64,000 bases of DNA from a virus (IMGVR_UViG_3300028485_000001:1-64000), one strand, 5' to 3'; shown: positions 3,709-14,386, counted from the first letter of the stretch. Notes: a model not told the origin generated them from the letters alone. A program made the numbers and translations.

Positions 3709-4959
3709 CTACTCGCGATCAGGCAGGGAGATCAGCTCAAGGTTGAACAAGCCCCCCTGGTTCACGCAGTCCTGGGCCAGGTCATGCACCTGTTCGTGGA
3801 AGTCCTCCTCCGACGCGGTCGCCATGACGGTCATGCTGACTGGCACGTATCGACTCAGTGAGTATGCTGCGGGCGCAGGGAGCCAGCCACCGAACTCGGT
3901 GCGGCACAACGTCAGTGGCCCGTCACCATCCCATTCAATGCCGACGCGAACCTCGTACTCGCGATCACCACTGCCTTCGGCGGTCGCCCGAACCAAGGCC
4001 ATCAAGTCGGCGACTGCGCACTCAACGCCCGACCCCCGCACCTCCCCGCCCTCGTGGGAGCTCTTCGCGTCTATCGGGCGCCCTCCGATCGCGGTGGCCA
4101 CAGTGACCGCTCCGTCGTGGTGGACACTCACCCACGCCTGCTTCCACTGGGATCGCTCATCGGTGGCGGTGTTCGTCGCCACCCAGCGACGCAGGCCTGG
4201 CCGCGGGTTGTCGCATTCGACGTTCTCTATCGGATGGTTGTCCTGGCTGGATGCATAGGTGAGCGTCAGTCTCCGAGCGCGAGCAAGTACCGGGCGCACC
4301 TCCTCGCGGTCGGCCCGGTGTAGCAGCCGCGGAATTCGCGGTTGGGCAACAGCGATGAGCCACGCCCGTTCCTTAGTGTTGAGGCCGTCCGCGGTCTCCT
4401 GGTACAGCGAGTCGAGAGCTTCACTCGCGTGGCGGCGTTCCTCGAATCGCGCCCGGTACATCGCCTCGATCTGATGCTCCCTCATCCAGACGGTGTCGGC
4501 GTCATTGCGGATAGGAGCCCCGAAGAACTGGTTGCGGTAGATCAAGTGTGGCCCTGCGACGCTTGCGGGCACCTCAACCGCAACGGCTCGCCCTTCGGCC
4601 TCGGAGCCGAGCTGGTGGACACGCAGGTTGAAAACGGGTGGGGAGATCGCCGAGATGGCGGCGCTGTGCAGCGTGCGTTCATGGTTCTCATCAAAGACGC
4701 CGACATCCACGCGTTCGGTTGCTACCTTCTGGGTCTCGTCGACTCCGTAGACGATGAGCCCACCGCCGCTGTTGGCCATCGCGGCGACGTCTTTGGGGAA
4801 GTCGGACTGAGTCAGGTTTTTCGCTGGGATCAGCTTTTCCTTCCAGTCCAGGTCGGCCATCTCGTGTACGCCGGCCTCGATGGCCGCGTCCAGCATGTCG
4901 ATCGACAGCGGCCCTGGGGGGAGGCCAAGAGCTCGGTGCAGGGCAGTGAAGGAGGTCAT
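3709..4959 (-). CDS. Schlafen/AlbA_2 domain protein
   Basis: E..DLDWKE...KDVAAMANSGGGLIVYGVDE; TACCAT-N6-ATG upstream. Confidence 0.85.
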   Translation of the reverse strand: MTSFTALHRALGLPPGPLSIDMLDAAIEAGVHEMADLDWKEKLIPAKNLTQSDFPKDVAAMANSGGGLIVYGVDETQKVATERVDVGVFDENHERTLHSAAISAISPPVFNLRVHQLGSEAEGRAVAVEVPASVAGPHLIYRNQFFGAPIRNDADTVWMREHQIEAMYRARFEERRHASEALDSLYQETADGLNTKERAWLIAVAQPRIPRLLHRADREEVRPVLARARRLTLTYASSQDNHPIENVECDNPRPGLRRWVATNTATDERSQWKQAWVSVHHDGAVTVATAIGGRPIDAKSSHEGGEVRGSGVECAVADLMALVRATAEGSGDREYEVRVGIEWDGDGPLTLCRTEFGGWLPAPAAYSLSRYVPVSMTVMATASEEDFHEQVHDLAQDCVNQGGLFNLELISLPDRE

Positions 4960-5064
4960 GAGCAGATGGTACGAATGCCCCACGACACGGCTCACCGAGT
5001 GTTGAGCTTTGTCCTGTCCGCATCCGGCCACCCCCACCACCGCGCCAGCGGGTACACCACGGGG

Positions 5065-5280
5065 ATGAGCGAACTCGTGTTCTTCAAGTCGTCGTACAGC
5101 CAGCCTCAGAACTGCGTTGAGGTGGCGTTCCGCAAGTCCAGCTACAGCGCGACCGCGAACGACTGCGTGGAGGTCGCGGACCTGCCTGCGGGCACAGCCA
5201 TCCGCGACTCCAAGCACCCGCACGAGGGCCACTTGGACATCCCGCGCGGGGAGTGGGCGGCGTTCCTGCGCGCCACCTGA
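5065..5280 (+). CDS. DUF397 protein with duplicated N-terminal motif
   Basis: FKSSYS..NCVEVA twice, then IRDSK.P..W.AFL. Confidence 0.9.
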   Translation: MSELVFFKSSYSQPQNCVEVAFRKSSYSATANDCVEVADLPAGTAIRDSKHPHEGHLDIPRGEWAAFLRAT

Positions 5281-5290
5281 CGCGCCGAGG

Positions 5291-5524
5291 TCACCCCTCC
5301 GCGTCCTGGTACACGTACACCGCGTCCGAGCGTCCCACCGGGCCGTCCACCAGGTCATAGACGTGCGTGCGCACCACCACCGGGCCGCCCGACCACGCGT
5401 CGCTCCCCGCGGCGTGCTCCGGGTAGGCGACACGGGCAGGCAGACGACCCGCGACCAAGACGACCGGCAGGTGATCGCCGTCGTGCGGGCCGTCCAGGTG
5501 CAACACCCACTGCCCAGTGATCAC
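5291..5524 (-). CDS. Hypothetical protein
   Basis: LDGPHDG motif; overlaps upstream stop. Confidence 0.65.
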   Translation of the reverse strand: MITGQWVLHLDGPHDGDHLPVVLVAGRLPARVAYPEHAAGSDAWSGGPVVVRTHVYDLVDGPVGRSDAVYVYQDAEG

Positions 5525-6768: not shown

Positions 6769-6933
6769 GTGCAGCGCTGGGAGTACCGCATCGAGGAAAT
6801 CCCCGGCGGACCGCACCAGGGCGACCTCCGCAACTGGGGCGCCGACGGGTGGGAACTCGTCGCCGAGACCGTCATCGGCGAGCAGCACGGGCGCCCGCTG
6901 GTGCGGTCCGTCCTCAAACGCGAACGCGACTGA
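6769..6933 (+). CDS. DUF4177-like small protein (54 aa)
   Basis: Hand-translated WEYRI...WGADGWELV; GGAGG RBS. Confidence 0.7.
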   Translation: MQRWEYRIEEIPGGPHQGDLRNWGADGWELVAETVIGEQHGRPLVRSVLKRERD

Positions 6934-6943
6934 CCGTGACCGT

Positions 6944-7157
6944 TAGACGGGTAGACGCCCCGTGGTGTCTAAGAGGCTGCCAGATGCGTCTAGGCGGCCG
7001 TAGCCAGCGGGAACAGTGAATGCCTCCGCCTCCGCCCCCAAGGCCGTCTACGGGCGTCTGAGAACACGAAAACCCCAGCAAACGCTGGGGTTTCGCCATG
7101 TCTACGAGGTCGTCTACGGGGCGCCCGGCCAGACAGCGACCAGACACCCCGCAGACA
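6944..7157. repeat. Cluster of 11 YGTCTR/YAGACR hexamers
   Basis: Copies at 6944, 6952, 6966, 6987, 7045, 7055, 7099, 7111, 7130, 7141, 7152. Confidence 0.75.
7070..7093 (-). terminator. Intrinsic terminator downstream of traB
   Basis: AAACCCCAGC-AAAC-GCTGGGGTTT; T-run follows on the minus strand. Confidence 0.75.
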
Positions 7158-7158
7158 C

Positions 7159-9318
7159 TCACCCCGTGTAACGGGCAGCGGCCTCCTCCAGGTCCTCACG
7201 GCGGTACCCGCGCACCTGGGTTCCCTCGTGGTCGGTGTAGCGACCGGCCTTCGCGCCCGCGTCTTTCAGGGCGTTCTGGGTGTCCAACAGGTCCATCTCC
7301 ACCGCCGACGCGACCACCTCACCACGCACCCCGCGGGCACCATTGGAGAGCAACAGAGCCGCCGCCAGGACAGGCGGCAGGTCACTGCCCCCGGTCGCTC
7401 CACGCGGGGCCTCTGCGGCCTCCCCGGGCACCTCCGTGCGTGGCCGGTACGACCACACAGCACCGCCCGGGACGGTGGCCACCGCAGAGTCCGAGGACAG
7501 GTCCCATACCTGGATCGGAGGCTGCGACGGGCCCCGGCCAGCGATGCTCAAAACGGCGTATCCGCCCAACTCCAACTCGTGGGACTTCCAGTCCGACCCG
7601 AGGACCTGGTTGTTCTCGTTGCGGCCAGCCGTCTTCAACACCACCCTGTCCTGCATCACCCCATTGAGCTGCGACGGAATGCCCGAGCCCAGAAGTGGCT
7701 TCTGCGTCGCCCACTTCAGGTCAATGGCCCGCGAACGACCCATCGTCGCCAGCGGCTGGAGCGGCCCGAGAAGGTTGAGGTGGTCCGCGGGATCCTTTGC
7801 AGAGGTGTCGTGCATCGCGACGATCTCCGCGCCCTCATCGACGATTGCGACGATCCGCGGCCGGTCCTTCGTGGGAGTCCACGTCGACACGCCTTGCTCC
7901 TGCATGATCTGCGACCGATCATGGGACTCGGCATTCAGCTCCCGCAGCACACCGAGGATGTCCTCAGGGGTGATGGCGATGCGGATCTTGCCGCGCCACA
8001 GGGCGGATTCCTCACCCTTCGGGTCGATGTAGACGACCATGGTCGGCTCGGTGGCCTGGAGTGCTTCGGCGATGAGCACCCTCACCAGCACCGACTTGCC
8101 CGCTCCGGACGTCCCCGCGATGAGCATCCGCCCCTTCGGGAGCACCACGGGCTGCCCCGTTTCGGTGTCCAGGCCGATGCCCTTGCACCCGGGACGCCAC
8201 ACCATGTCCCGGGACGGCGTCCTGGTACGGATCCTGAGCACCGCCTGATCCCCGTAGTCGCCTTCGGACAGGTCAGAGCGCACGTCCCGGGGGACGCTGA
8301 GAGCCGCGCGGACGACGGGCATCTTCTTCTCCAGCCACTCCGGGTTCGCCTTCCCCGACAGGGTCATCACCACCCGAATGCCGAGTGCGTCCACCGTCGG
8401 CGTCCCCGGGACGACCCCCTCCAGGCCCCGGCCCGCCGTGTGCTCCTCCCACCCGGCAAGACGCGACAGGAGACGGTTCTCCGCATCCGTCGCACCCACC
8501 ACCACCGACCCCGGGACGACCCCCCGGGATGCAGACGACACGACCGCAGCAGATCCGCCCAGCTCACCAGGCGGAACGAGGGGGGACGCAGCCTCCGTCG
8601 CGCTCACCGTCCCCTCAGCGACCGCGATCGCGTGACCCTGGATCGCCAGCCACACCCACGCCGCCGGCCACGCCAGCAGCGGCCACCACATCCCAGCGCC
8701 GATCAGCGCAGCAACCGGGCCGAGAGCGACCACTCCGGGGATCGCGGCCTGCTTCGCGAGCCTGCCGCCCCGGGCCTTGAAGGTGAGCGCGTCCATCTTC
8801 ATCGCCGACGGGGCCTTGTTCTCCAGCTCCCGGAGTTCCTCGGTGAGGAGTTTGACCTGTGCTTCGTCGCGGCGGATGCGCGCCTTGTCGAGCTTCTTCG
8901 CAACGGCGGCGCGTTCCCGGCGGATCTCCGAACGGGCCTCCTCCACGATCTCGGCGTACAGCTCGGGGTCCTGGACGTAGGCTTCGGCGGTCCGCCAGCG
9001 CCGCGACCACGCGAGGAGGGCGTAGGTGTGTGAGGCTCCCAGCGATGCCCTGAGCCGGGCGTTGACGTCGTCCAGGAGAGCGCGTTTGGGGGTGACGGCG
9101 TCGGCGGGGGTGTCAACGGGGACGATGACGCCTTCGGTGGGCGTCCCGTCCGTCCCGTGGCCTGACCTGGGAGCGTCCCCCTCCGTCCCGTCTGGCGTTT
9201 CCTCTTTCGTCCTCCCTTCCCGGGGGAGGGGCGTCCCGGGGGACGCCTCATAGACGACACCCATCGGGATCCCGTCCGTGTACGCGTCCATCTCGTCTGT
9301 CTCGTGCTTGTGTGCCAT
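7159..9318 (-). CDS. traB: FtsK/SpoIIIE-family DNA translocase, TraB-like conjugal transfer protein
   Basis: N-terminal TM segments; Walker A GTSGAGKS; Walker B AIVDE; GRSRAI...ATQ; C-terminal helical DNA-binding-like tail. Confidence 0.8.
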   Translation of the reverse strand: MAHKHETDEMDAYTDGIPMGVVYEASPGTPLPREGRTKEETPDGTEGDAPRSGHGTDGTPTEGVIVPVDTPADAVTPKRALLDDVNARLRASLGASHTYALLAWSRRWRTAEAYVQDPELYAEIVEEARSEIRRERAAVAKKLDKARIRRDEAQVKLLTEELRELENKAPSAMKMDALTFKARGGRLAKQAAIPGVVALGPVAALIGAGMWWPLLAWPAAWVWLAIQGHAIAVAEGTVSATEAASPLVPPGELGGSAAVVSSASRGVVPGSVVVGATDAENRLLSRLAGWEEHTAGRGLEGVVPGTPTVDALGIRVVMTLSGKANPEWLEKKMPVVRAALSVPRDVRSDLSEGDYGDQAVLRIRTRTPSRDMVWRPGCKGIGLDTETGQPVVLPKGRMLIAGTSGAGKSVLVRVLIAEALQATEPTMVVYIDPKGEESALWRGKIRIAITPEDILGVLRELNAESHDRSQIMQEQGVSTWTPTKDRPRIVAIVDEGAEIVAMHDTSAKDPADHLNLLGPLQPLATMGRSRAIDLKWATQKPLLGSGIPSQLNGVMQDRVVLKTAGRNENNQVLGSDWKSHELELGGYAVLSIAGRGPSQPPIQVWDLSSDSAVATVPGGAVWSYRPRTEVPGEAAEAPRGATGGSDLPPVLAAALLLSNGARGVRGEVVASAVEMDLLDTQNALKDAGAKAGRYTDHEGTQVRGYRREDLEEAAARYTG

Positions 9319-9388
9319 GATCAGTGAGTCCTTACGAGTATGGGCAACCAGGGCCGCCGAGGTGCTTTCTCGGCGGCCCGCTGTTGTT

Positions 9389-9832
9389 CTAGGTGATCGC
9401 GCCGCCGATAATCCCGGCAACGAACGTCGCGCCCATGGAGTGCAACCAGTCGATGAAGCCGGTCACCACACCCGAGCCCGAGCCCTTGGCAGCGATCGGG
9501 GTGATGGTCAGGGCAGCGATCGCCACGGGGTTGTACGTGTGGTCGTAGCGCAGGTCCACAAGGGTGATCACGAACCCGACGATGCACAGCACCGACCAGA
9601 TCACCCCGGTGGGCAGAGGCTCCCCGACCCAGCCTCCGAATGCCCCCGCGATTCCGCCGATGAAGGTTCCATTAGCCCAGTTGGAGATCGTCGAGGACAT
9701 GGGGGACTCGTAGAGCAGCATGCTCCCCGCCGCGCCGACCAGGAGGGCGATCAGTCCCGCCCGGCGTCCCTTCAGTTTCTTGTTGAGCCAGAACGCCCAC
9801 GCGAACATGCAGATGGCGAGGAACCCGTACAT
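9389..9832 (-). CDS. Membrane protein, Spd-like
   Basis: Multiple TM helices; directly upstream of traB. Confidence 0.65.
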   Translation of the reverse strand: MYGFLAICMFAWAFWLNKKLKGRRAGLIALLVGAAGSMLLYESPMSSTISNWANGTFIGGIAGAFGGWVGEPLPTGVIWSVLCIVGFVITLVDLRYDHTYNPVAIAALTITPIAAKGSGSGVVTGFIDWLHSMGATFVAGIIGGAIT

Positions 9833-10020
9833 CAGGCGTCCCCCCGCTTCCGACCGGCGAGGTAGTGGCGAACCACCATGACAGCCCCCCACACAACGGT
9901 GATCGCGGCGATCGGGACGAGGATGATCTCGGGGGCCCCGAACATCGCCAGGATGGCGACGGCGGCGCAGGCGAACACCACAGGAATCAGCTTGCTGGTG
10001 GGTATCGGACGTTCAGACAT
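9832..10020 (-). CDS. Small membrane protein
   Basis: Two TM helices; GAAGGAG RBS. Confidence 0.7.
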   Translation of the reverse strand: MSERPIPTSKLIPVVFACAAVAILAMFGAPEIILVPIAAITVVWGAVMVVRHYLAGRKRGDA

Positions 10021-10165
10021 GGGTGGCTCCTTCGAGTAGGTGCTTCCAAGGTGTGGAGGGATCCGGCCACGCTCACCCGTGTGCTCGTGCGCCTGTCCCG
10101 TCCTCGACCGGTGTGACCACCCACCCGGCGAGCGGGGAAGTCGTCACACCCCCGAGGGGGCGACC

Positions 10166-10194
10166 CCCCCGGGACGCATCGCGCGTCCCGGGGG
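10166..10194. repeat. 12-bp stem-loop made of the GGGACGC motif
   Basis: CCCCCGGGACGC-ATCGC-GCGTCCCGGGGG. Confidence 0.7.
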
Positions 10195-10201
10195 AGAGGT
10201 G

Positions 10202-11506
10202 CTACTTGGTGCGCTTCAGCGCCGACATGTCCAGGCCCTGCTTCTCGGCCTTCTCGCGCCAGCGACGGATCGTCGGCGCAGCCACCTTCAGCTCCGCAGC
10301 AGCGCCACGCACCGACGCCTTCTCGCCAGCAGTGGCGATGTACGTCACCAGCTCCCGAACCTGCGGATCCATGACGGGCTGATCTCCCACGGGACGTCCC
10401 CGGGACACTCCCTGGTCAGAGCCGAACCCGAGGAGTGAGAGGTGGTCAGTCGCGTCCCCCGTGGGCGAGGCAGGACGGGGGAGGGACGACAGGTCGTTCG
10501 GAACATCGCCAGCACCCAACGCGAACGACGCAGGGCGGGACGCGTTGATCCTCTGGATCAGCTCCTGGCGGGCCAGTTCCACCTTCGCCGCTTCCTCCTC
10601 CATCGCCCGACGCTGCTCCCCGCGACGCCGGATGTCCGCGAGCTTCTGCTGGTGCTCGGCCTTGGCCTTGGCCTCGTCGACCCGCAACTCCTTCTCGGCC
10701 TTCTCCTCGATGTACGCCGCGTCCTCCTCCAGGCGAGCCAGCTCAACCCGGCGCTCGTGCGACAACTCAGTGGACAGCTCCGCGTCTTGGCGGGCCTGCT
10801 CCTCGGCAGCCAGACGGGCGGCCTCAGCCGCGGCTTCCGCCCGCTCCGCCTCGGCGCGCTCACGCTCCTCGGCGGCCTCTTCCTCCTTGCGCTTCGCCTC
10901 GGCGCGGGTGTCCGCCTCGTTGCGGCGGATCGTCACCAGCAGCGCCCAGAGCGCCTTCGACAGCAGCGGCGTCGCAGCGAACAGCAGCGCGCCGGACCAG
11001 CCGACGTGCACGACGATCGCGGCTGACGCCAACGCAGCGGCAGCCCACCCGAGAGCGGACGCCTGACGGGCTACCGACGGCACGAGCAGCGCCAGAACCA
11101 CCGACGCGACCATGACCAGGTCGAACAGCACACCCAGGGGGAGGCTGATGTACAGCGGGACGGGCAGGACGTGCGCGACCGCCCACGCAGCCCACGGCAG
11201 AGCGAACAGGGTCGGCAGAGCAGCCGCTGCGCCGAGCGCCCGGGGGAGCCACGACGGGGGCTCGCTGGCAGCGGGCGGGGCGCCCGCGGCGGCCTCAGCG
11301 GCATCGCGCGGAACCGGAACGGTGCGCTTCACCAGGAGCCGCCGCACGCGCTCCACGGTTGGAGCGAGGCGGCCCGAGCGGTGGAGCAGCAGCAGAATCC
11401 CTACTGCAACGGCGATCACTCCCGCTGTGGCAGCCCACGGAAGCCAGGGGAGGATGGCCTCCAGCAGGGTTGTGTCCTGCTGATTCTCTGTTGGTACGGT
11501 GTTCAT
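10202..11506 (-). CDS. Spd-like protein (TM bundle, coiled coil, C-terminal HTH)
   Basis: About five TM helices; Glu/Ala/Arg coiled coil; SVRGAAAELKVAAPTIRRW HTH. Confidence 0.65.
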   Translation of the reverse strand: MNTVPTENQQDTTLLEAILPWLPWAATAGVIAVAVGILLLLHRSGRLAPTVERVRRLLVKRTVPVPRDAAEAAAGAPPAASEPPSWLPRALGAAAALPTLFALPWAAWAVAHVLPVPLYISLPLGVLFDLVMVASVVLALLVPSVARQASALGWAAAALASAAIVVHVGWSGALLFAATPLLSKALWALLVTIRRNEADTRAEAKRKEEEAAEERERAEAERAEAAAEAARLAAEEQARQDAELSTELSHERRVELARLEEDAAYIEEKAEKELRVDEAKAKAEHQQKLADIRRRGEQRRAMEEEAAKVELARQELIQRINASRPASFALGAGDVPNDLSSLPRPASPTGDATDHLSLLGFGSDQGVSRGRPVGDQPVMDPQVRELVTYIATAGEKASVRGAAAELKVAAPTIRRWREKAEKQGLDMSALKRTK

Positions 11507-11579
11507 ATCCGGTCTCCTAGGGATCGGAGGCCCGCCCTGTCCTCACCGACGGGGGCGGGCCGTCTTGGTTTCGGGGTGG

Positions 11580-11738
11580 TCAGCCGTTGCCGAAGTTCAT
11601 GCTGATGCCGCCGCGCACGGTGCCGAGCTTGAGGTCCACGGGACCGGTGAGCTCTTCGACCGTGCCGTCCTCGTAGGTGATGACGGTGACGTCGTCGATC
11701 ATCCGAACGGACTCGACGGGCTTGTCCTGCTTGGCCAT
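11580..11738 (-). CDS. Small hypothetical protein (52 aa, MAKQDKPV...)
   Basis: Hand-translated; GAAGGAG RBS. Confidence 0.65.
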   Translation of the reverse strand: MAKQDKPVESVRMIDDVTVITYEDGTVEELTGPVDLKLGTVRGGISMNFGNG

Positions 11739-11763
11739 GAGGGCTCCTTCGGGGGGTGGTGGG

Positions 11764-11925
11764 TTACTTCTCGCGGGCGTCGAGCTTGCTCATGAACGAC
11801 TGCTGCTCGGACCGGTCCATGTCGGACTCCATGAGGTAGTGCGCGAGCAGCTTCGCGGCCTCGTCGGTGTCGCCCGCCGCGTTCGCGGCCTTGATCTTCT
11901 TCGCGGTGTCGTCCTTGAATCCCAT
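11764..11925 (-). CDS. Small hypothetical protein (MGFKDDTAKK...)
   Basis: GAAGGAG RBS. Confidence 0.7.
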   Translation of the reverse strand: MGFKDDTAKKIKAANAAGDTDEAAKLLAHYLMESDMDRSEQQSFMSKLDAREK

Positions 11926-12008
11926 GTCGGCTCCTTCGGGGGTTGGCGGACCGTGCTGGTCCCCGAGCCGCCCAGCAGGACGGGCCAGGCGACAGAGGGG
12001 CCGCACGG

Positions 12009-12296
12009 TCAGCGACTGAAATCCGGGACCGGCGGATACGGAGGGAGCAGCACCGGCCGTCGGTACGGTGCCACCTGGCGGCGCAGCTCCCGGCACACGT
12101 CCTCGACCGTGCGACCGCTGTCCGCGATGACCGCGGCGGTGATGCGGGCGGTGTGCACGGCGACCAGGGCTGCGCGTTCGGCGTCAGCCCCGTCGAGGGC
12201 CCGCTCGATTCCGGCGTCGTCCTGGCGGTGGGCGGCGCGGACCAGAGCGATCGCGCGGAGGGCCGCGTCCACGTCGGGGGCGTCAGCGGCGCTCAT
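12009..12296 (-). CDS. Hypothetical protein
   Basis: Operonic overlap with the upstream small ORF. Confidence 0.6.
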   Translation of the reverse strand: MSAADAPDVDAALRAIALVRAAHRQDDAGIERALDGADAERAALVAVHTARITAAVIADSGRTVEDVCRELRRQVAPYRRPVLLPPYPPVPDFSR

Positions 12297-12418
12297 CAGT
12301 GCCGCCCCTCGGCGTCAGCGGCCATGACGGCGTAGACGACCGCGATGATCGAGACGGCGACGCTGAGGCCGAGGATCACACCGAAGGGGTTCGCGAGGAC
12401 GAAGTCGATGAGGGTCAT
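12296..12418 (-). CDS. Small membrane peptide (40 aa)
   Basis: Hand-translated MTLIDFVLANPFGVILGLSVAV...; overlaps both neighbours. Confidence 0.55.
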   Translation of the reverse strand: MTLIDFVLANPFGVILGLSVAVSIIAVVYAVMAADAEGRH

Positions 12419-12630
12419 CGTCGGGCCTCCCCGGGGGTCAGGCCGGCGTCGCGGACGTTGCGGTCGTTGAGGGTGAGGGGCTGGCGGCGGATCGTCGCCG
12501 CGGACACCACGAGGGCGACCATGGCGACGGTGAGAGCGACCGCCTCGACGGGGGAGAGGTGGGAGAGCGCGAGGCGCAAAGCCTCAAGCGCGGGGGAGAC
12601 GGTCAAGCCGTCAGGGATTAGGCTGTTCAC
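12415..12630 (-). CDS. Small membrane protein
   Basis: AGGAG RBS; one TM helix. Confidence 0.55.
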   Translation of the reverse strand: MNSLIPDGLTVSPALEALRLALSHLSPVEAVALTVAMVALVVSAATIRRQPLTLNDRNVRDAGLTPGEARR

Positions 12631-12772: not shown

Positions 12773-12787
12773 TACCATAAGCCCATG
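12773..12787 (+). promoter_or_regulatory. Leaderless-type -10 for the integrase
   Basis: TACCAT-N6-ATG and no RBS. Confidence 0.6.
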
Positions 12788-14344
12788 GCGACTGAACCCC
12801 CATCCTCCCGCGCCCTTGACTTGATGTCCGGCCGCGCCTGGCTATATGCCCGTGTCAGCAAAGACCTGCGCGAAGGCTCCTCCTGCGACCAGCAGCTCAC
12901 CATCGGCCGCCGAGAGTGCGACCGCGAGGGCGTGCCCGTCGCAGGCGAGTACCGGGACGACGACATTTCCGCATCCCAGTACGCCAAGCGCGCCCGCGCC
13001 GACTGGGACCGTCTCATGGAGGATCTGAAACGCGACGGGCAACCAGGGGACAGGCTGTGGGGATGGGAGATCAGCCGCCTTGCCCGCGAACGCGGCACCT
13101 GGTCCCAAACAGTTCGGCTGCTCCAGGACCTCGGGATGTTCCTGTGGGTGGGTGGGAAGATCTACGACCCGCAGAACCCACAGGACATGTTCTTCCTGGA
13201 CATCATGCTCGCCAAAGCGGTCGCCGAGGTTGGCGACACTCGCCAGCGCATCCTTCGGGACGTGGCCGCGCGCGCAGAGGCTGGTGGCGCGTCAGGGCGC
13301 CCCGGGTATGGGTTCGAGCACGTCTACGACCCGAAGACTGGATCTTTCCTGGAGCGTCGACCGAAGCCGGACGAAGCGGAGATCGTCGCGGAGATGGCTG
13401 ATCGGCTTCTCGCTGGGGACGGCCTGGAGACCATCGCTAGGGACCTGAACACACGCAAGATGCCCAACTCGATCGAGTACATCGCTGGCCAGCGGATGCC
13501 TGATGGTAAAACGTCGCGCGGGTGGACGGCGGCGACCGTCCGAAGCATGCTCATGCGCTCCTCGATCATGGGCAAACGCTCCTGGAAGGGCCGTCTCATT
13601 GCTGAAGGCGGGTGGGAGGGCATCGTCTCCGAGGAAGACTGGTACGAGCTTCAGCGGCGCCTCAAGAGCAGGTCCGGCCAGGTCCGGGACGGAAGGGCGT
13701 CTCACGAACTGTCGGGGATCGGGACCTGTGGGGCGCGCGTCGATCGCGCCGAGGGCGGCGAGGGCGGCGAGGAGCCCACGCTGGTGCGGTGCGGGTGCCG
13801 TGTGTACGCGGAGTCGTCGAAGCGCGGCAGGGTGTACCGGTGCCGAGGCCGGTACGCGGGGGATGAGTCCGGGCACGTGTCCCGCAAGGCGGACCTCATC
13901 GAGGAGCAGGCGACGGGCCTGCTCATGGAGCACTTCTCCCGCCCAGATATCAAGGCCGCGCTTCTGTCGCCCCCGGATGAGAGCGGAGATGCGGCACGGG
14001 CCCGCTCGGAGGTGAAGCGCCTGGAGCGGGAGCTGGAGGGCCTGTACGAGGACGTGCGGGCTCGCCGGGTGTCGCGCCAACTCGCCGCGGCGGATGAAGA
14101 GGGCATCCGCGCGGAGCTGCGACGCCTGGAGGGGCAAGTGCGTCCGCAGACCATCGACCCGATGCTGATCGCTCTGGCGCAGAATCCGCGGGCGGCGTGG
14201 TCGGGGTGGAGTGTGGAGCAGCGGCGGAGGGCGTGGAGGTCGGCTGTGGCGCGTCTGGATGTGCTCCCGGTGGGGCGTGTGGGGCGCCGACCGGTGCCTG
14301 TGGAGGAGTCGATCGAGATCGACTTTGTGGGCCTGGTGGTGTGA
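12785..14344 (+). CDS. int: Large serine recombinase (integrase)
   Basis: YARVS catalytic motif; RE.SR..R; recombinase domain; Cys-containing ribbon; coiled coil. Confidence 0.95.
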   Translation: MATEPPSSRALDLMSGRAWLYARVSKDLREGSSCDQQLTIGRRECDREGVPVAGEYRDDDISASQYAKRARADWDRLMEDLKRDGQPGDRLWGWEISRLARERGTWSQTVRLLQDLGMFLWVGGKIYDPQNPQDMFFLDIMLAKAVAEVGDTRQRILRDVAARAEAGGASGRPGYGFEHVYDPKTGSFLERRPKPDEAEIVAEMADRLLAGDGLETIARDLNTRKMPNSIEYIAGQRMPDGKTSRGWTAATVRSMLMRSSIMGKRSWKGRLIAEGGWEGIVSEEDWYELQRRLKSRSGQVRDGRASHELSGIGTCGARVDRAEGGEGGEEPTLVRCGCRVYAESSKRGRVYRCRGRYAGDESGHVSRKADLIEEQATGLLMEHFSRPDIKAALLSPPDESGDAARARSEVKRLERELEGLYEDVRARRVSRQLAAADEEGIRAELRRLEGQVRPQTIDPMLIALAQNPRAAWSGWSVEQRRRAWRSAVARLDVLPVGRVGRRPVPVEESIEIDFVGLVV

Positions 14345-14348
14345 ATGG

Positions 14349-14386
14349 ACAGAGACGCCCCAGCCAGACGGCTGGGGCGTCTCTGT
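14349..14386. terminator. 17-bp perfect hairpin between convergent genes
   Basis: ACAGAGACGCCCCAGCC-AGAC-GGCTGGGGCGTCTCTGT. Confidence 0.85.

Follow-up and report, generated by a model that had tools for sequence, protein, structure and literature searches.

The 64,000-nucleotide stretch IMGVR_UViG_3300028485_000001:1-64000, referred to below as the window, covers the initial 64 kb of a virus contig from IMG/VR, 85,359 bp long and with a G+C content of about 68%. Positions 7159-12630 hold a block of genes built around a TraB-like DNA translocase and, as far as comparison with related loci can tell, this block belongs to the temperate siphovirus itself. We think it probable, although by no means assured, that the block is a phage-borne version of the TraB-clt-Spd system with which actinomycete plasmids and the integrative and conjugative elements of actinomycetes (AICEs) transfer double-stranded DNA (dsDNA), and that it would pump circular phage DNA across septa or between hyphae.

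A sequence-only reading of this region had described a leftward operon next to the integrase, encoding an FtsK/SpoIIIE ATPase with a transmembrane (TM) anchor, several small membrane proteins and a protein with TM, coiled coil and helix-turn-helix (HTH) parts. Translations, Pfam and PHROG matches and structural models all bear out this description. The same reading proposed that a module of TraB/Spd type is carried by the integrase-bearing temperate phage itself. This proposal gains support from the homology of the ATPase to pIJ101 Tra, from homology to plasmid-like TraB operons of Nocardiopsis, from a weak but consistent relation to SpdB_N and from an array of clt-like repeats.

A TraB-like ATPase

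The ATPase gene (7159-9318, minus strand) encodes an FtsK/SpoIIIE protein of 719 aa. Its actual start lies at M35 of the long open reading frame (ORF), which gives the protein the same length as its database copy (P0001). It matches the Pfam family FtsK_SpoIIIE (PF01580; 1.7e-11) and phrog_17958, "FtsK/SpoIIIE-like" (1.6e-45), and includes both the Walker A sequence GTSGAGKS and, as Walker B, an IVAIVDE motif. An NCBIfam scan returned only sub-threshold P-loop matches. Among the 72,556 plasmids of PLSDB, the best match comes from pIJ101, whose Tra protein is 37% identical over 415 columns (E 1e-51), and the next-best matches are also from small conjugative plasmids of Streptomyces. Homologues encoded in Nocardiopsis transfer operons are 39-42% identical, and cultured Streptomyces phages of the Woodruffvirus/BD cluster carry genes annotated as "FtsK-like DNA translocase" whose products are 35-37% identical.

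An AlphaFold model of the ATPase (22 homologues; mean pLDDT 76) predicts a disordered N-terminus followed by long helices (residues 77-167), membrane helices (172-235), the motor (278-614) and a C-terminal domain (649-718). The membrane helices, N-terminal to the motor, cover the hydrophobic segment found in a Kyte-Doolittle scan, and TM segments are also predicted in the phage homologues. When the motor was compared with known structures using Foldseek, it matched TcpA, a conjugation coupling protein, and FtsK motor domains (E ~1e-15). Modelled alone (82 aa; 16 phage homologues), the C-terminal domain reaches a pLDDT of 88 and is predicted to fold as H-H-H-beta-beta-H, a three-helix bundle with a beta-hairpin wing. 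Its top PDB matches are all winged helices (DnaD-N, TFE-alpha and the MarR family; E 0.015-0.2). The winged helix is kept in the 16 phage homologues together with an invariant RGY motif in the wing, and orthologues of the ATPase carry MarR_2 or HTH_24 Pfam matches. In the published TraB architecture, the winged helix uses its helix 3 to recognise the clt repeats (PMC3583192, PMC4447253). The domain order of the model is that of TraB, and we assign the ATPase to the plasmid Tra/TraB family as a TraB-like dsDNA translocase, with DNA binding by its winged helix as a prediction.

A candidate clt locus downstream of the ATPase gene

The 225-bp spacer just past the ATPase stop codon is occupied by an array of 11 copies of a 7-8 bp motif (6943-7156, minus strand), directly 3′ of the gene. 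On the minus strand the motif reads GGTGTCTG or, as the complement, (T/C)AGAC(G/A)CC, with a GTCT/AGAC core (GGTGTCTG/TAGACGCC). Three copies in the GTCT orientation, at 11-bp spacing, are followed by six in the AGAC orientation and two more in the GTCT orientation. TAGAC is present seven times in the array, where its density in the contig would predict 0.13, a local enrichment of about 50-fold, and the array includes 4 of the 24 window copies of AGACRCC. An alignment of seven orthologous loci whose ATPases are 60-80% identical (alignment A4) reveals invariant motif cores separated by divergent spacers. The array was found by reading the spacer sequence; its copies are degenerate, and an unbiased 8-mer cluster search of the whole contig therefore did not flag it. 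It is bounded on the other side by a conserved 54-aa gene (6769-6933, plus strand), convergent with the ATPase gene and kept in all five close loci (L004, L005, L012, L013 and L014).

In the middle of the array lies a perfect 10-bp hairpin, AAACCCCAGC-GTTT-GCTGGGGTTT, followed by a run of T (7070-7093, minus strand; inverted repeat I5). It is conserved in L012 and L013 and is likely to be the operon terminator.

More distant relatives have other repeats at the equivalent position, also of GGTGNNNN form. At this position viral contig L016 carries GGTGTTCC/GGAACACC repeats, and the Nocardiopsis elements L098 and L097 carry CCGTCCAC/GGTGGACG and GTGAAC/GTTCAC repeats, respectively. In published clt loci, the winged helix of TraB binds 8-bp repeats that are specific to each plasmid (PMC4447253, PMC3583192). 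The array at 6943-7156 likewise consists of element-specific repeats adjoining the translocase gene and so fits the description of a clt locus, for which it is our candidate.

A group of soil phages of about 60 kb has no array directly after the ATPase gene. In one of their contigs (L019, 63 kb) a repeat array is located at 9170-9380, in the spacer between the genes for the SpdB-like and 150-aa TM proteins. Arrays of this CGGCACA type, with six to seven copies of CGGCACA/GTGTGCCG, are present in at least six soil phage contigs (L019, L020, L021, L023, L035 and L049). The motif resembles the clt repeat of pJV1, CCGCACA[C/G][C/G] (PMC3583192).

Related repeats were also observed elsewhere. Two inverted copies of AGACGCC, a heptamer shared with the array, are located at 14353-14382 of the window, just past the integrase stop codon, and may be only a terminator stem. 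In L016 a second array, besides that formed by GGTGTTCC, includes about 14 copies of GTCTCA/TGAGAC (L016:4040-4400) arranged as a forward block and then an inverted block, inside a 422-aa ORF 1 kb downstream of the TraB-like gene.

SpdB-like and small membrane proteins

The 434-aa protein encoded at 10202-11506 (minus strand) includes TM helices at residues ~22-40 and 95-195, a coiled coil (~196-325) rich in Glu, Ala, Arg and Lys, and a C-terminal HTH. Its five hydrophobic helices form an N-terminal TM helix and a four-TM domain. In an hhalign comparison, its family (A2) matches the pIJ101 SpdB family (A3) with a probability of 76% (E 2.4e-5) over 73 columns covering TM2-TM4. Seven orthologues have a precomputed match to the Pfam family PF27080 (SpdB_N), which was absent from the Pfam set used to scan the window proteins; pIJ101 SpdB itself has matches to both PF27080 and PF27079. 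The nearest Atlas clusters, which we treat as leads only, are SpdB_N and DUF2637. None of the orthologues carries PF27079 (HTH_SpdB_C), and the hhalign match ends after the TM domain. The 434-aa protein is thus likely, if only weakly, to be related to SpdB through its membrane domain, and its C-terminal half, the coiled coil and HTH, is distinct from the C-terminal domain of SpdB. 

A second partner is a 147-aa four-TM protein (9389-9832, minus strand) encoded directly upstream of the TraB-like gene. Its gene accompanies that of the ATPase in 30 of 45 related loci and is present in 8 of the 151 sampled genomes of the host family. The protein is 54% identical to a 149-aa protein encoded at the equivalent position in Nocardiopsis L097 and L098. 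BLASTP detected no similarity between it and KilB of pIJ101, and tblastn searches with the 147-aa and 434-aa proteins found no match in the cultured-phage or plasmid collections.

The module and the candidate phage attachment site

Between the integrase gene and the module, an inverted repeat read from the sequence, CGCCTCG-N21-CGAGGCG (12542-12576), is a candidate attP core. The position of this repeat can be compared with an integrated relative, L012, whose ATPase is 79% identical. In L012, genes of chromosomal type extend up to L012:5803, and homology to the contig starts abruptly at L012:5938, 135 bp from the host gene and corresponding to window position 12558. From there L012 is collinear through the module, then through 6714-1, and continues straight into 85219...75404, across both contig ends. 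Relative to that prophage, the contig is therefore circularly permuted. The breakpoint, 12558/12559, falls exactly at the centre of the inverted repeat, which accordingly fits a serine-integrase attP as far as the sequence indicates. With the integrase and module joined, the contig represents the unrecombined attP form. A search with the host flank of L012 in 151 genomes of the family for a corresponding attB found only a two-gene block to be conserved, in varied contexts, and no syntenic empty site.

The module thus lies directly across attP from the serine integrase and, since the two flank attP, would form one end of the prophage in lysogens and the integrase gene the other. An att junction between the integrase and the module had been named beforehand as a sign that they belong to different elements. 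A site is indeed present there, but it is the phage's own attP and marks no element boundary.

Other relatives give the same picture. In S. salina (L004), host genes are followed by the module, the ATPase gene, an HTH gene and then lysis and tail genes, with no integrase between them; about 8 kb separate host DNA from the lysis and tail genes and the module is 2.4 kb from the lysis genes. In S. halophila (L005/L008) the module forms the left edge of a prophage which is collinear with the structural genes over about 40 kb, and no integrase was found nearby. Two metagenomic phage-like contigs keep the integrase and module adjacent, one with a different serine integrase and the other with an integrase of tyrosine type, and the module is thus retained in lineages with three different integrases. 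The only att site is that of the phage, and no self-contained int-rep-tra unit with its own att sites and without virion genes was found. All these comparisons indicate that the module is part of the temperate siphovirus itself.

The S. halophila prophage also carries two inverted copies of an ATP-dependent DNA ligase gene (G001:C2 65269-66219 and 80319-81269), 52% and 58% identical to that of the phage (contig 68356-69327). These flank the transfer module together with a rep segment.

Operon layout, phage genome and host

Genes were called from third-position G+C (GC3) and ORF translations. They form a compact leftward operon on the minus strand, running from about 12630 to 7159, in which tightly packed genes are coupled. 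Apart from the ATPase and the 434-aa protein, it encodes four small membrane proteins (~57-71, 40, 62 and 147 aa) and three small soluble proteins (95, ~53 and 52 aa). All of the following are minus-strand genes. The first small TM ORF (12415-12630), present in a 57-aa form in L012, crosses the candidate attP core, and its 5′ end consequently differs between the free and integrated forms. The stop of this ORF overlaps the start of the next gene (ATGA), which encodes a 40-aa protein with a single TM segment (12296-12418). Then follow genes for a 95-aa soluble protein (12009-12296), with a 95-aa gene at the equivalent place in L012 and L004, a small soluble ORF of about 53 aa (11764-11925), with a 55-aa gene at the equivalent position in L012, and a 52-aa soluble protein (11580-11738; GC3 0.94) conserved in L012. 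Downstream of the SpdB-like gene, a 62-aa two-TM protein (9832-10020) is encoded by a gene translationally coupled to that of the 147-aa protein; ORFs of 58-63 aa occupy its position in L005, L012, L013 and L014.

A consensus scan for sigma-70-type promoters found none between 6700 and 13000. The only promoter-like feature on the integrase side, read by eye, is a -10-like hexamer, TACTAT. The heptamer GGGACGC is concentrated in the operon: 14 of its 34 window copies fall within 2.35 kb (8191-10543), on both strands and mostly in coding DNA. L012, L013 and L014, the closest relatives, show the same enrichment, and L004, L005 and L015 do not.

The integrase gene adjoins the operon and is divergent from it (12785..14344, plus strand). 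It encodes a large serine integrase of about 519 aa with Resolvase and Recombinase domains (phrog_95 at 2.6e-68), and its start is probably the ATG at 12785 rather than 12299. The window also encodes a siphovirus gene set (portal, TerL, major head, major tail, tape measure and minor tail proteins and an endolysin), and the phage has an Erf recombinase and Cro/CI-type regulators. Plasmid-style replication initiator genes are present on the contig behind duplicated leader sequences. The contig starts (1-243) inside the C-terminal part of a rep-like gene of HTH_36 type, paralogous to the end of a 370-aa gene at 84055-85167, and positions 33-243 resemble 85013-85219. The assembly is probably broken inside a repeated rep/leader unit of a circular map. 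To have called this a complete phage, as was done initially, is slightly too strong for an 85-kb contig broken inside a repeated rep gene.

The closest homologues of the phage proteins come from Streptomonospora and Nocardiopsis, and the hosts are predicted to be mycelial actinomycetes of the Nocardiopsaceae (Nocardiopsis/Streptomonospora group). In the accessory region to the left of the module, the minus-strand gene at 3709-5433 encodes a protein of 574 aa in which Pfam detects a Schlafen/AlbA_2 domain (1.4e-09). Its neighbours are a GNAT fragment and GIY-YIG and HAD-like genes.

Proposed function and alternative explanations

If the module works as we suggest, the phage genome, circular after infection or excision, would be loaded with TraB-like hexamers which recognise the repeat array through their winged helix. 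The motor, together with the SpdB-like and small membrane proteins, would then pump the double-stranded genome through septal cross-walls into neighbouring compartments and possibly also into touching hyphae. The outcome would be spread and lysogenisation of a mycelial host independently of virions.

In a more specific version of this scheme, to which we give little weight, the lineage would be a "conjugative prophage" that integrates, a hybrid of AICE and phage. Since excision changes what lies upstream of an operon starting at attP, a promoter on the integrase side could restrict expression to the circular form. The operon, which reads away from attP, would then be transcribed from the integrase-side arm only once excision has joined the two prophage ends, as in Tn916. 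Induction would open both a virion route and a clt-directed route into neighbouring or foreign hyphae, the latter including hosts resistant to adsorption. As the promoter scan found no candidate, excision-coupled transcription is without direct support.

Several observations weigh against a transfer function. The fold matches of the winged helix are generic, with E values of 0.015 or worse. The SpdB relation is weak, at the hhalign probability given above, and the 434-aa protein of the window has no Pfam match of its own. The array could belong to another DNA-binding protein. A kil-kor GntR regulator, the Nudix protein Pif and ParA are typical of plasmids and AICEs. None of the three was found in the module, and GntR and ParA have no significant match anywhere on the 85-kb contig, the search for Nudix being confined to the module. 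Finally, FtsK-like genes are also present in phages of Mycobacterium and Bacillus, which are not mycelial, and hyphal spread cannot therefore explain all phage FtsK genes.

This last observation also speaks for a role of the ATPase in phage DNA metabolism, such as resolving or clearing replicating concatemers or helping packaging, with the membrane proteins as unrelated morons. We regard this as improbable: the phage has its own terminase, the ATPase is predicted to have TM helices and a site-recognition winged helix, it travels with its four-TM partner in 30 loci and with the SpdB-like protein, and its closest non-phage relatives are located in plasmid transfer operons. Somewhat easier to envisage, although still unlikely, is that the module works within one mycelium only, as a segregation or spreading pump across septa into compartments, hyphal fragments or spores. 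The plasmid-style replication initiator genes behind their duplicated leaders would suit such a function, a DNA pump could substitute for partition as no ParA was found, and in pSVH1 it is spreading, and not primary transfer, that requires the Spd proteins (PMC4447253). However, plasmid TraB drives intermycelial transfer as well (PMC4447253), and the two roles are not separable from sequence.

That relatives of the module occur on plasmid- and AICE-like elements, and that it is located at a prophage end, where morons often lie, might suggest a separate AICE or AICE remnant beside the prophage, as the sequence-only reading had allowed, or an exclusion or defence module expressed by the prophage. 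However, the module has neither a second integrase nor its own rep gene, and no att site separates it from the remaining phage genes. In L012 it directly adjoins host genes and phage DNA is then collinear from the module through the contig ends, the S. salina module is close to the lysis genes, and the module is kept in lineages with three different integrases. These results contradict the idea of a separate AICE. A defence-system reading was rejected since PADLOC gives matches at the level of the P-loop only. Taken together, we consider explanations of this kind to be very improbable, and transfer of phage DNA by a TraB-like module remains the reading that we prefer.

Should the module work as it does in plasmids, temperate phages of mycelial actinomycetes would gain a second, particle-free mode of spread able to lysogenise a whole colony. 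This route would bypass receptor-based resistance and would blur the boundary between phages and conjugative elements. The candidate clt array, with its different motifs in sister elements, and the mapped attP make the idea directly testable.

Comparison with known systems

Like the Tra/TraB-clt-Spd systems of Streptomyces plasmids (pIJ101, pSVH1, pJV1 and pWTY27), the phage module includes a single membrane-anchored FtsK-like motor with a predicted C-terminal winged helix, short element-specific repeats nearby, and SpdB_N-like multi-TM and small membrane proteins encoded in a coupled operon. In contrast to these systems, it is located inside a tailed-phage genome and is without a GntR Kor/TraR regulator or a Nudix gene in the module. 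In the 434-aa protein the place of HTH_SpdB_C is taken by a coiled coil and another HTH, and the repeats of the module are arranged as opposed blocks rather than as direct copies only.

Another close resemblance is to Nocardiopsis elements of plasmid/AICE type. L098 includes a divergent GntR gene, small genes, a 455-aa SpdB-like gene, small TM genes, a 149-aa gene, a TraB gene, a repeat array and Nudix, ParA and TrwC-like genes; L097, a shorter locus, has the same layout from the small genes onward. Both share with the phage the order SpdB-like, small TM genes, 149 aa, TraB and repeat array, their TraB, 149-aa and SpdB-like proteins being 39%, 54% and 33% identical, respectively, to their phage counterparts. 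Unlike the phage, they carry plasmid maintenance and regulatory genes, no virion genes and other repeat motifs (CCGTCCAC, GTGAAC). In gene content, the phage module is the core of a Nocardiopsis plasmid- or AICE-style operon minus its GntR, Nudix and ParA genes.

A further relative in kind is pZL12/phiZL12, a Streptomyces plasmid-phage (Zhong et al. 2010, J Bacteriol 192:3747) whose transfer, according to the papers that cite it (PMC3583192, PMC4487206, PMC7157519), needs the major tra gene and adjacent genes. pZL12 is described there as a tailed phage genome of roughly 90 kb with conjugal transfer; the present phage resembles it in gene content, virion genes and a tra-type region lying on one replicon. 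In the same descriptions pZL12 is maintained as a plasmid with ParAB, whereas the present phage has a serine integrase, adjoins attP with its module and has integrated relatives, and a search for ParA found none. Neither the best 25 of 107 phage records matched by the ATPase nor the 21 plasmid records matched included pZL12.

Annotations of Streptomyces phages routinely include FtsK-like genes, whose role is left open in recent papers (PMC11536984, PMC13587820). Those of the Woodruffvirus/BD-cluster phages (YDN12, TP1604, Abt2graduatex2 and Geonosis) share their 35-37% identity with the ATPase over the motor domain, and Abt2graduatex2 has the same three-gene layout of ~330 aa (331), ~130 aa (131) and FtsK-like 682 aa. 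Unlike the module described here, these genes occupy the right end of the genome, with FtsK-like as their sole annotation; a blastn search with the block found no match in cultured phages. About 30 IMG/VR contigs also have a related layout (400-430 aa with four TM segments, ~150 aa with a TM segment, ~610 aa ATPase), and eight of those examined are about 60 kb long; the six or more contigs with CGGCACA-type arrays belong to this group.

The idea of phage-borne transfer is therefore not itself new, having precedents in pZL12, in the suggestion made for SpdB2 homologues of phiC31 and VWB and in the FtsK-like genes of Streptomyces phages. What the present case adds is an integrating, serine-integrase lineage assigned to the Nocardiopsaceae, a module mapped next to its putative attP and a clt candidate supported by comparison among related loci.

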